Source: Glycomyces tenuis DSM 44171
Lineage (GTDB): Bacteria > Actinomycetota > Actinomycetes > Mycobacteriales > Micromonosporaceae
Reading direction: 5' to 3'
Assembly (NCBI RefSeq): GCF_000427885.1
Contig: NZ_ATYW01000001.1
Coordinates: forward strand, 147 to 64,146
DNA: 64,000 bases
Shown one piece after another: positions 42,728-52,951 of this stretch. Position numbers and translations under genes: made by a program. Numbering within the stretch: the first letter of the stretch is position 1; the number at the start of each line of letters is the position of its first letter. Below the pieces are notes generated by a model, which saw nothing but the letters and a program-made list of their open reading frames with translations, made no database searches and was not told where the DNA came from.

Positions 42728-43981
42728 ATGTCCGAGCCCGTCGGCGTCACGCCGCAGCAACTCTCCGATGCCGAACAGCAGCTTCGGAGCCAGATCGACC
42801 CAGCGGCCGAACTCGAGACCAAGGCCAACGCCGAAGGACTCGACATGATGGCCTGGGGCGTCCCCGGCCTGTTCTTCTCCCCCGGCTACTACCAGATGAC
42901 CGCCGACATCAAAGAGCTCTTCCGCATGATGGTCGAAGGGCTGGAGGGCCACGCCACCCGCCTCAAGGACTGCCGCGAGGCCTGGGACACGGCGGACATG
43001 GACACCGCCACCGAGTTCTCCCAGTTCGCCCCCGAGGGCCTGGGCAGCAGCATCGACTGGGGTGGCGCGACGTTCACCGGCAGCGGCGGGAACTACACCA
43101 CGGCGGGCCCGGTCGCGGTCATCGACGGCGGGTCGTGGATGAAGGCGTCCCCCACCAAGGCGATCACGAACTACGCGGAATACGGCGACAAGATCGAAGC
43201 GGTCAAGCGCGCCGACGACGGCGGCGAGATGCTCTACGCCGTCATGGACATCAGCGCGGCCACCATGGGCTGGGCCGGCGACGCCATGGAGATCGCCACC
43301 AACCCGCTGTCGTTCCTGATCTCAGCGGGCCTGGACTTCCTGATCTCGCTCATCCAGCCGGTCGACGACCTCCTCGGCATGGTCATCGGCAACGCCGAGC
43401 GCATGGGCGAGGAGATCAAACGCTGGAACGGGATCAAAGGCGGCCTGCCGCCGATCGGCGAGGCGGTCGCCACGATCCCCGAAGGCGGGCTCAGCCAGTG
43501 GTCCGGCCAGGACGGCAACGCCGCGCGGACGAAGATCAAGGAGTTCGCCGAGGCGGTGCTCGACCTCGGCGACAAGATCCAGGTGCTCGAAGGCCTGATG
43601 CAGCTGTGCGAGCTGATCGCCACGCTCATCCGCAAGACGCTGCTCGGCATCCTGGCCGACTGGATCACCAACCAGATCATCGCCTGGGCCATCGCCGGAG
43701 CGGCCTCCGCGTTCACCTTCGGTGGAGCCGCCGCCGCGCAGCTGGCGAACTCCATCCGCTCGGCGATCCAGACCGTCATCAAGGCGCTCGACAGGTACAA
43801 CAAGGCCGCTCAGGCGTTCATCGACGGGAGCAAGATCCTCAGCCGCGTCCAGCAGGTCGTCGAGGTGGCCGCGCACCCGCTGACGGAGGCCGGCATGAAG
43901 TTCGTCGGCACGGTCGGCACGCTCGCGGGCGCCGGCGGCCCCCCGACCAGCGACTCGATCGCCGACGGGTTCAACGGCTAG
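42728..43981 (+). CDS. Helical WXG100-like/EspA-like protein with hydrophobic C-terminal half (candidate T7SS-type substrate or toxin)
   Basis: RBS GAGGTGA. MSEPVGVTPQQLSDAEQQLRSQIDPAAELETKANAEGLDMMAWGVPG... helical N-terminus; the C-terminal half has amphipathic/hydrophobic helices (LLGILADWITNQIIAWAIAGAASAFTFGGAAAAQL). Confidence 0.55.
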   Translation: MSEPVGVTPQQLSDAEQQLRSQIDPAAELETKANAEGLDMMAWGVPGLFFSPGYYQMTADIKELFRMMVEGLEGHATRLKDCREAWDTADMDTATEFSQFAPEGLGSSIDWGGATFTGSGGNYTTAGPVAVIDGGSWMKASPTKAITNYAEYGDKIEAVKRADDGGEMLYAVMDISAATMGWAGDAMEIATNPLSFLISAGLDFLISLIQPVDDLLGMVIGNAERMGEEIKRWNGIKGGLPPIGEAVATIPEGGLSQWSGQDGNAARTKIKEFAEAVLDLGDKIQVLEGLMQLCELIATLIRKTLLGILADWITNQIIAWAIAGAASAFTFGGAAAAQLANSIRSAIQTVIKALDRYNKAAQAFIDGSKILSRVQQVVEVAAHPLTEAGMKFVGTVGTLAGAGGPPTSDSIADGFNG

Positions 43982-43982
43982 C

Positions 43983-50657: not shown

Positions 50658-52004
50658 TCAGCGGCCGGTGCGGGCCCACCACCGGCCGGTCGCGCCGCGC
50701 CCGGCCTCGGCCTGCGGTGCGGCCGCGGGCGGCGGCTCGATCTCGGGCGCGAACCGCGCGATGCGGCAGTCCCAGTGGTGCAGCAGCGGTTCGCTCGCGT
50801 CGGGGACGGCTTTGACGGTGACGGTGAGGTCGAGCGCGGTGGTGCGGCCTTCGGCCGCCTCGATCTCGAGGACGCCGGTCTGCGGCGGCGCCTGCCCGGA
50901 CGGGACCGGGAGCGGCGCGCCGGGGGTGCGGACGCTGACGCGGTGGCGTCCCGGGGTCGCCTCGATCCACATGCGGGTCCACGAGGCGGCGACGCGGACG
51001 CCGTCGAGCCAGATCTCGGGCGGCGGGACGGCGGACCGGTGCCGGATCGGCACGAGCTCGCCGACGCGGTCGAGGGCTTTGCGCTGGACGCCGTTGATGC
51101 GCGCCTGCCCCGGCGGCAGCTGCCGCGCCAGCTCGCCGGAGCTCAGGTCGGCTTTGAGGAAGCGGGCGTCGATGAGCACGGCCGCCGCGCCGGGGTGCGG
51201 CGGGGGCGGCGGGCCGTCGGCGGCGAGGACGATCGGCGCGGCCAGTCCGGCGGGCGCGAACGCGGCGGTGCTGAGCGGCAGGGCCGGTCCGATCCGGTTG
51301 TACCGCAGGTAGGTCCACAGGATCCGCGCGCCCCAGAACGCCAGGCCGAGCAGCGGGAGCGCCAGCGCGATCGGGAAGACGACCGAGGCGCTCGCGCCGG
51401 TGAGCGCGGTCAGCCACGTGACCGGCGCGGCGGCGAACAGGGCGAGCAGGAAGACCGCGAAGCTGCGGCGGCTTCGCGCGTTGGCGGGGAGGTACTGCCG
51501 GTAGTGGAGCCGTCCGCGCGGTCCGAGGGCGTGGCCGCTGAGCTCGGCCGCCCGGCCGGAGACGGCGCCTTCGGCGTAGGAGCGGTGCCGGTCGCCGAGC
51601 ATCCCGATGTAGTCGAGCTTCACGGTCTTCCCGGCCGCGATGTCGACGGCCCGCCAGGCCCGGGAGTGCTGGCTCTGCACTTCGAGGAGGTGGCGTCCCG
51701 CGGGGAGGGGGATGGCGATATGGCCCCATCCGGTGGCGGCGGGGCGGCCGTCGATCAGGACGAGGGGCACCAGACTCGATCTGAGGTCGCCTTTGGCGGC
51801 GACGGGGTCGCCCGCGCGTTCGCGGCGTTCGATGATCTCGGCGGCCTCGGCGATGCTCCTCGTCTCGACGCCGGCGCAGTGGCCGACGCGCAGGTCCAGG
51901 GTGCCGGCGTTTCCGCCGGGGGCCCGGCGCCCCCCGATGGGGGCGATCTGCCAGCCGGGGAGCGGGGGGCCGAAGCGGGGGCTCGCGGAACCGATCATTG
52001 CCAT
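50658..52004 (-). CDS. 2-TM membrane protein, paralogue of 43983..45269
   Basis: MAMIGSASPRFGPPLPGW...LVLIDGRPAATGWGHIAIPLPAGRHLLEVQ...TMs FAVFLLALFAAAPVTWLTAL and VVFPIALALPLLGLAFWGARILW. Confidence 0.55.
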   Translation of the reverse strand: MAMIGSASPRFGPPLPGWQIAPIGGRRAPGGNAGTLDLRVGHCAGVETRSIAEAAEIIERRERAGDPVAAKGDLRSSLVPLVLIDGRPAATGWGHIAIPLPAGRHLLEVQSQHSRAWRAVDIAAGKTVKLDYIGMLGDRHRSYAEGAVSGRAAELSGHALGPRGRLHYRQYLPANARSRRSFAVFLLALFAAAPVTWLTALTGASASVVFPIALALPLLGLAFWGARILWTYLRYNRIGPALPLSTAAFAPAGLAAPIVLAADGPPPPPHPGAAAVLIDARFLKADLSSGELARQLPPGQARINGVQRKALDRVGELVPIRHRSAVPPPEIWLDGVRVAASWTRMWIEATPGRHRVSVRTPGAPLPVPSGQAPPQTGVLEIEAAEGRTTALDLTVTVKAVPDASEPLLHHWDCRIARFAPEIEPPPAAAPQAEAGRGATGRWWARTGR

Positions 52005-52951
52005 CGCACGTCTTCGGGGTTGGAGAACCGGTCGGGGAGCTGCTCGTCCATCCAGTTGAACGCGCTGTCGAGCCCTCCGAGGCCGGGGCCGCCGCTGCCC
52101 TGCTCGTAGAGGCCTTTCCAGCCGTCGTCCTCGTTCTGGTAGACCGGGGCGAGCGCCGAGCCGCCTTGGACGGCGTGTATCGCCGGGTTCGTGGTGGCGT
52201 GCCTGCCGCCGGGCGTCATCAGCAGCGCGTTGAGTCCGTAGACGGCCAGTCCCTGGAGCATGTTGGTGAGCCCGGCGGCGGCGATGTCGACGGGGCTGAC
52301 GGGGTTGCCCTGGGACTTCTGGAAGCCGAAGGTGACCACGGTGATCAGGCCGGTGAGCGCCGCGCAGCCCGTCGAGATGGACCGGAGGACCGCTTCGAAG
52401 CTCTTCAGGGACGCGACCAGCGACGTCGCCACCGCCAGGGCGCTGGTCCTGATGGCGGGCGCGCCGGGGGCGGAGACCACGCCGGACAGGGCGGCGAGGT
52501 AGGCCGTCAGGAAGGTGACCATCACCGCGGTGCAGGCGGTCAGGAAGACCCAGTAGACGGTGAGCATCACGGCGAAGGCGATGAGCTGCGAGCCCATGAG
52601 GAACGCGGCGACGGCCAGCTCCTGGAGCTGGGACTTGATGTTGCCCGCGGCCTCTTTGAAGGCGTTCGCGTCGTCGCCGCACCAGTTCCCGTCGTCGACC
52701 GTGTCGATCTCGGCCTGGAGCGCCTCGGCCGCCTCGTTGTTCTTCTCGGCGAGCGCGACCCAGGCCCCTCCGGCCTTCATGATGTCACCGGGGTTGCACT
52801 GGTTCATGTAGATGCTGGTCGCGATGCTCTGCACGGAGAGGCCGAAGACGATCGCGGGCGGGGCGATCGCGACCGCGCAGCTCTTGATGACGCCGCTGTA
52901 GACGGGCGACATCTTGTCGCCCGCGTCCATGAGGCTCTGCCCGGTGGACAT
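51995..52951 (-). CDS. WXG-motif protein with multi-TM C-terminal region
   Basis: RBS GGAGGACCGCAC plus ATG. MSTGQSLMDAGDKMSPVYSGV...AEALQAEIDTVDDGNWCGDDANAFKEAAGNIKSQLQEL (WXG hairpin), then at least four hydrophobic helices. Confidence 0.6.
   Translation of the reverse strand: MSTGQSLMDAGDKMSPVYSGVIKSCAVAIAPPAIVFGLSVQSIATSIYMNQCNPGDIMKAGGAWVALAEKNNEAAEALQAEIDTVDDGNWCGDDANAFKEAAGNIKSQLQELAVAAFLMGSQLIAFAVMLTVYWVFLTACTAVMVTFLTAYLAALSGVVSAPGAPAIRTSALAVATSLVASLKSFEAVLRSISTGCAALTGLITVVTFGFQKSQGNPVSPVDIAAAGLTNMLQGLAVYGLNALLMTPGGRHATTNPAIHAVQGGSALAPVYQNEDDGWKGLYEQGSGGPGLGGLDSAFNWMDEQLPDRFSNPEDVRWQ

Follow-up and report, generated by a model that had tools for sequence, protein, structure and literature searches.

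Mirrored WXG-type and membrane protein gene pairs of Glycomyces tenuis as possible 3′ halves of diverged type VII-style substrate cassettes

A 64-kb stretch of Glycomyces tenuis DNA (G+C ~70%; hereafter the window) carries two gene pairs in opposite orientation, each encoding a helical protein followed by a membrane protein with two transmembrane (TM) segments. The plus-strand pair was designated A1/B1 (42728..43981 and 43983..45269) and the minus-strand pair A2/B2 (51995..52951 and 50658..51998). The mirrored layout, A1 preceding B1 on the plus strand and A2 preceding B2 on the minus strand, was found as an initial annotation of this DNA had described it. The four open reading frames (ORFs) are also real, as they lie at the positions then given, have coding-type G+C content at third codon positions (GC3, 0.83-0.95), and match deposited G. 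tenuis proteins: A1 a protein of 417 amino acids (aa) with the same start at 42728, A2 the 318-aa "PPE domain-containing protein" at 100% identity, and B2 a 446-aa protein that places the start at the ATG at 51998 rather than at 52004. In the reading that we tentatively favour, the pairs would be the 3′ halves of two anciently diverged, Glycomycetaceae-restricted type VII-style substrate cassettes, with B as the cognate membrane partner. The earlier observation was thus borne out in part: both pairs exist as coupled genes, and B1 and B2 are paralogues, whereas the A proteins are related at the level of superfamily and architecture only.

B1 and B2 have an identical architecture, in which a TM hairpin (residues ~169-225 of B1 and ~181-226 of B2) separates an N-terminal from a C-terminal beta domain; their description as 2-TM membrane proteins was therefore correct. 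The N-terminal beta domain of B1 carries the motif DG..A.G.G...PG.H.VEVQ and the C-terminal one IDD..VP.DW..W.Y.L..G.H. Overall identity between the two proteins is ~24%, and BLASTP (E=1e-4) aligned them only over the motif from which the initial annotation had called them clear paralogues. Profile-profile comparison by hhalign, using a B1 profile built from orthologues of seven other species and a B2 profile built from 35 homologues, aligned 240 collinear columns spanning the N-terminal beta domain, both TM segments and the C-terminal beta domain (Prob 96.9%, E=1.5e-10). This similarity is well above chance and bears out the paralogy, though a distant one. The N- and C-terminal beta domains of B also resemble one another (E=2.7e-7). 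Across ~55 family members the TM hairpin is rich in K/R on both flanks and has a loop of 1-13 residues, which mostly consists of one acidic residue; as no signal peptide is present, the positive-inside rule would place both beta domains in the cytoplasm. Beta-sandwich families were matched by B2 orthologues, in all cases below threshold (DUF2846 in 18 of 35; BiPBP_C in 6 of 35, best 1.4e-4; also CarboxypepD_reg and MalQ_N), and some members are named "PEGA domain-containing" in UniRef, while the B2 profile had no match among PDB sequences.

The B family is narrowly distributed. A word-indexed search found 36 homologues of B2, all of them in Glycomyces, and an exhaustive phmmer search with B1 against 1.84e9 cluster representatives returned 29 hits only, with up to three paralogues in one genome and with all named hits belonging to Glycomyces or Natronoglycomyces. 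A pattern search of metagenomes for distant B homologues yielded no confirmed locus with the narrower alignment, and the broad alignment was too divergent. On these searches we regard B as a previously undescribed, unannotated membrane protein family restricted to the Glycomyces-type lineage. G. xiaoerkulensis has a second B1-like gene (L003, 14427-15830), an orphan with no A-type gene adjoining, whose product shares 45% identity with B1.

A2 is a PPE/WXG-like protein with a W90-x-G92 hairpin, TM-grade helices at residues 123-160 and a further one at 192-210. It passed the Pfam PPE threshold (PF00823; 27.8 bits, cut-off 26, E=3.1e-6), the match covering only profile positions 19-93 of 165, and PF00823 is precomputed in about half of the A2 orthologues. 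Against Pfam WXG100 (PF06013) it reached 17.5 bits, below the cut-off of 27.3, its 318 aa comparing with a family size of ~100 aa. The Pro-Pro-Glu motif is not present: A2 reads APPA at 30-33, with P32 alone invariant. The AlphaFold2 (AF2) model of A2 is an all-helical bundle (predicted local distance difference test score, pLDDT, 75.6; predicted template modelling score 0.68) with helices at residues 3-49, 54-84, 93-156, 163-213, and 220-244, the WXG turn lying between the second and the third, 64-residue helix. Foldseek matched this model with high probability to PPE15, PPE4, and EsxA, with E-values that were not significant, and the A2 profile gave only marginal WXG100 matches among PDB sequences (E=0.08-1). 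After the WXG helix, ~56 consecutive residues of A2 are without charge. In a Hessa-type scan, residues 123-141 had a predicted insertion free energy (dG) of -1.2, a value on par with those of genuine membrane proteins encoded at the locus; no segment of this kind was seen in soluble controls. The word-indexed search found 43 homologues, again all in Glycomyces. Three cysteines (C25, C52, and C196) and the motif Y48-x-NQCNPG55 are invariant across 39 A2 homologues.

A1 is built differently, with an EspC-like N domain (~1-105), a Gly-rich linker and a WXG100_2-like domain (~185-400). Among its orthologues the invariant residues are W88xxxD92...F99 in the N domain and W260-x-G262 in the WXG100_2-like domain. 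Sixteen orthologues were compared with Pfam, of which 11 matched WXG100, 10 WXG100_2, and 4 DUF6317; the best WXG100-type E-value, ~1.5e-4, is sub-threshold, and A1 has 417 aa against the ~100 aa of the family. A1 itself had no match to Pfam PPE (PF00823), its profile had none among PDB sequences, and its N domain matched only DUF6317, weakly. The EspC-like character of the N domain comes from a stand-alone 108-aa G. endophyticus protein, which matches A1 residues 7-105 (BLASTP, 1.6e-7) and passes the Pfam EspC threshold at 31 bits. Residues 154-273 of A1 match a WXG100_2-type protein of a third cassette described below (BLASTP, E=4e-8). In other A1-like paralogues the EspC domain is C-terminal instead and bears a canonical YEAAD or YCSAD motif. 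The hydrophobicity of A1 is marginal (Hessa-type dG of +2.3 at 319-337), and its AF2 model, at pLDDT 38, is too poor for a fold search or structural comparison. In the word-indexed search A1 had 18 homologues, all in Glycomyces.

Both A1 and A2 thus carry a W-x-G turn within a helix-turn-helix hairpin, as in the WXG100/EsxAB superfamily, and the proposal that the upstream proteins are WXG-type held for A2 by its PPE match and for A1 by the Pfam matches of its orthologues. As to the hydrophobic helices ascribed to them, those of A2 are membrane-grade, whereas those of A1 are marginal. Paralogy of A1 and A2 could not be demonstrated, as BLASTP gave E=0.022 and hhalign E=0.011 (Prob 4%, centred on the W-x-G motif), leaving a shared superfamily and a shared architecture.

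Each pair is part of a larger set of genes. In cassette 2, A2 is preceded on the minus strand by E (52966..53265), which encodes a 99-aa EspC-like small helical protein, the A2 partner, and by Y3 (53262..53999), the first gene of the cassette, for a 245-aa protein with a weakly YbaB-like C-terminal half. E aligned over its full length with Pfam T7SS_ESX_EspC (PF10824; E=0.0014, 19.5 bits, cut-off 23.5), and three of six E orthologues gave an EspC match (E=0.0014-0.024). In cassette 1, two YbaB/EbfC-like genes lie on the minus strand, divergent from A1: Y1 (41859..42266, 135 aa) and Y2 (42266..42559, 97 aa). Both passed the Pfam YbaB_DNA_bd cut-off (PF02575, 25.5 bits), Y1 with 38.9 bits (E=1e-9) and Y2 with 42.9 bits (E=5.5e-11), and Y3 fell below it with 21 bits (E=3.8e-4). 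Y1 and Y2 match one another (BLASTP, E=2e-4), and Y1 is kept beside Y2 and A1 in seven other species. A tandem fusion of Y2 and Y1 as the origin of Y3 was rejected, since BLAST gave it no support.

The genes of a cassette follow one another closely. A single base separates A1 from B1 (TAG-C-GTG); the B2 start overlaps the A2 stop codon as ATGA; Y3 and E overlap in the same way; and the 14-nt gap between E and A2 holds the Shine-Dalgarno sequence AGGAGG. Judged from these junctions, the cassette genes are translationally coupled. Extra copies were found in G. tritici, where Y3, E, A2, and B2 homologues of 247, 102, 319, and 458 aa stand in an unrelated gene context, and in G. buryatensis, where a 247-aa gene is followed by genes for a 466-aa protein and a 475-aa B homologue. 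Y3 travels with E-A2-B2 in these copies (L012 and L010), and the cassette moves as a unit, both copies keeping the gene set. The 466-aa G. buryatensis protein (L010, 4596-5996) is a natural fusion, in which residues 1-100 correspond to E (58% identity) and residues 138-466 to A2 (41% identity), joined by a Gly/Ala-rich linker. A profile of this E-A2 fusion gave a weak, collinear two-segment match to A1 (E=0.005). A1 would accordingly be a fused EspC-like and WXG protein, of which E plus A2 is the split version. EspC-like and WXG hairpins are therefore fused in both domain orders, and this is Rosetta-stone evidence for one working unit. The repeat unit, as the gene order presents it, comprises three to four genes, namely YbaB-like, EspC-like, and WXG/PPE-like genes and then B, and is not a pair. 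The duplicated pairs seen in the initial annotation are thus real and tightly coupled, each being a portion of such a cassette; the toxin/antitoxin unit of two genes that it had also considered is contradicted, as the YbaB-like and EspC-like genes belong to the cassette.

A third cassette begins at the right end of the window with a YbaB-like gene (63890..64000, plus strand) that continues past the window end. Followed beyond the window (L013, 5952-9822), cassette 3 encodes a YbaB protein of 125 aa, an EspC protein of 104 aa with the motif YESAD, which is precomputed as EspC, and a WXG100_2-type protein of 240 aa; next come two proteins, one of 269 aa that starts with a signal-like segment and one of 184 aa, and then a pair of SUKH-4 genes. 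Such a layout looks like that of a classical polymorphic toxin locus. The cassette-3 WXG protein has hydrophobic helices after its hairpin, as A1 and A2 have, but these are not TM-grade. Given that such helices are generic to the WXG100_2-type domain and are present in a cassette bearing SUKH-4 genes, they are by themselves no sign of a pore-forming toxin. SUKH-type immunity genes are carried by sister cassettes of the neighbourhood. In G. buryatensis (L010), the fusion and the B2 homologue are followed by a 184-aa protein with weak SUKH_5/6 matches.

Synteny of the locus extends over at least nine Glycomyces species. The order starts with an oxidoreductase, X282, Y1, and Y2, then A1 and B1, a variable region, and C1, a lipoprotein gene, D1, D2, and C2; it continues with B2 or a substitute, A2, E, Y3, and M, and ends with two small TM proteins, a VirB4/TcpF-like ATPase, a VirB6/CD3337-like membrane protein, P189, and an M23 peptidase. 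Between G. tenuis and G. algeriensis, identity is 86% for VirB4, 61% for A2, 55% for B2, and 54-59% for Y3. Genus-wide synteny marks the region as vertically inherited, and the term "island" used for it earlier is unsupported.

The gene following A2 is not constant. Among the 10 cassettes examined, five have a B2-type gene in this position, three an unrelated 146-aa 2-TM ORF, and two nothing. The 146-aa ORF, which replaces B2 in three species, is of the coding type (GC3 0.92-0.95). In G. xiaoerkulensis, the A2 left without a partner has lost its hydrophobic helices. The constant presence of a partner gene beside an intact toxin gene, as with immunity genes, was not found for A2/B2. Deposited A2 orthologues of 383-477 aa have long C-terminal extensions, and these were rejected as domains on account of their non-coding GC phasing (G+C content at second codon positions ~0.95) over the 146-aa 2-TM ORF. 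In three species (L004, ~19.6-20.2 kb; L005, ~19.1-19.6 kb; L007, ~18.1-18.6 kb) the A2 stop codon is absent and the frame reads on for 67-121 codons. The long deposited proteins are probably annotation artefacts or real read-through tails.

If the pairs are parts of type VII-style substrate cassettes, the following mechanism may be proposed. The EspC-like part, whether E or the N domain of A1, would pair with the WXG hairpin of A to form a four-helix bundle, with which the natural fusions in both orders are consistent. This bundle would display a composite type VII signal of W-x-G and [Y/W/M]xxxD; the motifs are observed in the proteins, and from them we infer export. In mycobacteria, the YbaB-fold protein EspL stabilises EspE/EspF, and by analogy the YbaB-like protein may be a dedicated stabiliser. 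The complex would then be exported by a type VII system putatively encoded elsewhere in the genome, and A could become membrane-active or membrane-inserted through the long hydrophobic helices that follow its WXG hairpin and that reach TM grade in the A2 lineage. B, anchored by its TM hairpin and presumably with both putative PEGA-like beta-sandwich domains on the cytoplasmic side, may handle A at the producer membrane as a holdase, docking, or self-protection factor. As B occupies the slot that toxin/immunity genes have in sister cassettes, it is most economically guessed to act as a holdase or in an immunity-like manner.

Several points weigh against this proposal. Neither the 64-kb window nor the 10 kb past its right end was found to contain Ecc core genes (EccB/C/D, MycP). 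B2 is dispensable in several species, and the A2 of G. mayteni is still hydrophobic with neither B2 nor the small 2-TM gene adjoining. The direct sequence links between A1 and A2 and between E and A1 are weak (E=0.005-0.025), the EspC assignment of E is sub-threshold in Pfam, and the fold and topology of B are deduced solely from weak Pfam matches and the positive-inside rule. Furthermore, the export motif appears degenerate in both cassettes: its position reads WxxxD, invariantly, in A1 and MxxxD in E (WxxxD in G. xiaoerkulensis, L003), and canonical forms are seen in paralogues (YEAAD, YCSAD) and in the cassette-3 EspC protein (YESAD).

The initial annotation had suggested effector/immunity modules, and its interpretation was supported in part: a WXG-type and membrane-active nature is plausible for A2, whereas the effector/immunity assignment is conjectural and meets counter-evidence. 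In the form weighed here, A, or at least A2, would be a depolarising or pore-forming toxin delivered by a type VII secretion system (T7SS), and B its membrane immunity protein, comparable with TspA/TsaI and TelE/TipE. The operon logic is that of LXG cassettes (one or more small helical partners, a WXG/LXG protein bearing hydrophobic helices, and a membrane protein after it), and the coupling of the genes and their recurrence as cognate sets agree with it, as do the paralogous, diverged, and numerically variable cassette copies, the TM-grade helices of A2, the SUKH-type genes in sister cassettes and after B in L010, and orphan partner genes such as the B1-like gene of L003 and X216 of the window. 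The loss of the hydrophobic helices from the G. xiaoerkulensis A2, where B2 is absent, points the same way. However, the hydrophobic G. mayteni A2 without either neighbour argues against an obligate immunity protein, and three species have exchanged B2 for an unrelated gene while A2 stays ~68% identical. A and B are moreover core genes that are conserved in synteny and lack a hypervariable toxin end; the helices are of the generic kind that also occurs beside separate SUKH-4 genes; the bulk of B is predicted to be cytoplasmic, which is atypical of immunity to an incoming pore-former; and neither PADLOC nor toxin families gave a match. A toxin/immunity role of the cassettes is thus possible, and this specific assignment we consider rather doubtful.

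A second explanation starts from the genes on the right of cassette 2. There, at 55331-62805 on the plus strand, two small TM proteins precede a VirB4/TcpF-like ATPase (56059-59214; AAA_10; TcpF E=2.7e-22), which is followed on its 3′ side by a 630-aa polytopic protein with a weak match to the CD3337/EF1877 "mobilome membrane protein", a 189-aa protein, and an M23 peptidoglycan hydrolase. A2, B2, and the 3-TM protein M could be accessory parts or regulators of this adjoining VirB4/TcpF-type apparatus, forming a resident membrane complex and a chimeric machine resembling both a type IV secretion system (T4SS) and a T7SS, as proposed for pRAW; we hold this to be unlikely. The VirB4 cluster lies on the chromosome, keeps its synteny in G. 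algeriensis and G. tritici and, judged from the 86% identity of VirB4 between G. tenuis and G. algeriensis, does not resemble a decaying integrative and conjugative element (ICE); entire cassette copies also occur away from VirB4 in G. tritici and G. buryatensis. A further reading, in which Glycomyces has a chromosomally fixed VirB4/TcpF-type apparatus flanked on both sides by YbaB-EspC-WXG cassettes, and in which A2 and B are parts or substrates of a hybrid T4SS/T7SS-like envelope machine rather than ordinary ESX substrates or toxins, is in our judgement very unlikely. That A1 and A2 are unrelated helical proteins which happen to precede paralogous B genes, without a common function, agrees with the non-significant direct comparisons and with an A1 model too poor to be compared with that of A2, but is hardly credible given that Pfam places both independently in the WXG100 superfamily, that both have an invariant W-x-G followed by ~65-residue helices, that both are linked to EspC-like and YbaB-like parts and to a B paralogue, and that the E-A2 fusion profile finds its two segments in A1 in collinear order.

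Compared with known systems, the type VII-style substrate cassettes that we favour come close to the Esp proteins of ESX-1. EspA/C, EspE/F, EspL, and the WXG plus YxxxD signal are established (see also PMC6109436, PMC3482391). A small EspC-like protein beside a larger WXG-type protein and a YbaB-like protein is common to both, and so, in partly degenerate form, is an aromatic-xxx-D motif close to the end of the EspC-like hairpin. The Glycomyces cassettes differ in lying outside the mycobacteria, in having no adjoining ecc genes, in their small-then-large gene order, in a large partner with TM-grade helices, in the 2-TM, putatively beta-sandwich protein that comes next, and in an EspC-like protein, E, below the Pfam threshold. 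A2 resembles the PE/PPE proteins in passing Pfam PPE over its WXG hairpin and in a model that superposes on PPE4 and PPE15, and A1 and the G. buryatensis fusion hold both hairpins on a single chain, as in the fused PE-PPE-like fold of EspB. Unlike PE/PPE pairs, A2 lacks Pro-Pro-Glu, matches only part of the profile, and has a hydrophobic third helix of ~64 residues; its upstream partner gene is EspC-like and not PE, and among the window genes scanned no EspG-like match was obtained.

The Firmicutes LXG cassettes (Lap1/Lap2, LXG toxin, and immunity protein; TspA/TsaI, TelE/TipE) have the operon logic and the translational coupling in common with the Glycomyces cassettes. The two are unrelated in sequence, no glycine-zipper toxin domain was identified, and B, which some species do without, has large beta domains that are probably cytoplasmic. 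Polymorphic-toxin loci of the WXG100_2 type that carry SUKH immunity genes have been described in actinobacteria (Zhang et al. 2012, PMC3482391). With these the YbaB-EspC-WXG triad is common, and the central domain of A1 is homologous to the cassette-3 WXG100_2 protein that stands ahead of two SUKH-4 genes; cassettes 1 and 2, however, are without a recognisable toxin domain or SUKH gene and have B in that position. Mycobacterial pRAW conjugative plasmids depend on T4SS-like (VirB4, TcpC) and T7SS genes (PMC12857230, PMC5381665). As on these plasmids, T7SS-type substrate genes are linked in Glycomyces to a VirB4/TcpF-type ATPase, a VirB6/CD3337-like protein, and a peptidoglycan hydrolase. The Glycomyces locus differs in lying on the chromosome, in synteny throughout the genus; neither an ecc core nor a relaxase was seen close to it, and cassettes are also found away from VirB4.

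The cassettes show the mycobacterial "Esp" toolkit (EspC-like, PPE/WXG-like, and YbaB/EspL-like proteins) in a non-mycobacterial actinomycete as a compact, duplicating unit, and tie genetically to these putative substrates a membrane protein family that has 29 cluster representatives in 1.84 billion proteins. The A2 lineage has gained helices of membrane grade; provided that A2 is exported and membrane-inserting, it would serve as a tractable model of how WXG proteins turn membrane-active. Should the link to the VirB4 cluster be functional, it would bear on the open question of T4SS/T7SS cooperation.

Between the two pairs, on the minus strand, lie further sets of paralogous genes. C2 (48894..50597), 3′ of B2, encodes a protein of 567 aa, its orthologues being 58-70% identical between species; C1 (45368..47050), convergent with B1, is its 560-aa paralogue. 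Both are acidic and Gly-rich, match WXG100 weakly, and share the motif ..WG..NEDEDPYA at the C-terminus. Orthologues of C1 and C2 cross-match at 25-30% identity (E down to 1e-32). D1 (47817-48242) and D2 (48531-48875) encode paralogous small helical proteins (BLASTP, 47% identity, E=5e-19), and a lipoprotein gene (47053-47811) stands between C1 and D1. D2 and D1 are separated by inserted WXG100_2 and SUKH-4 genes in G. algeriensis and G. tritici.

Searches for other origins of the locus were negative: a plasmid collection held no match to 40000-62000 by megablast or to A2 by tblastn, giving no evidence of a known plasmid or ICE origin, and defence-system and phage origins were rejected, as PADLOC and PHROGs returned no meaningful matches. 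The genes upstream of the locus in other species, checked by eye for a T7SS core without a family search, resemble molybdopterin-cofactor genes.

Elsewhere in the window, X216 (40256-40906, minus strand) encodes a 216-aa soluble protein; flanked by the oxidoreductase and X282 and without an A-type neighbour, it looks like a partner gene that is orphaned or truncated. Its homologues in other species have an N-terminal TM helix and lie directly 3′ of A1-like paralogues with a 4-nt overlap. An 800-aa protein with a single FtsK/SpoIIIE domain (28496-30898, plus strand; EccCa-like P-loop E=5e-24, weak TraG-D_C) is encoded 25 kb from the VirB4 cluster and could be an ATPase of the TraB/coupling-protein type. 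The minus-strand region at 15622-26393 encodes ClpB (867 aa), a 1646-aa DUF3686 + DUF7902 + AAA protein, and a 689-aa SPFH/Band-7 protein. Mobile-element genes are represented by a DDE_5 transposase (473-1447, minus strand) and an IS605-type TnpB (32198-33436, minus strand; OrfB_IS605 and Cas12f1-like TNB).

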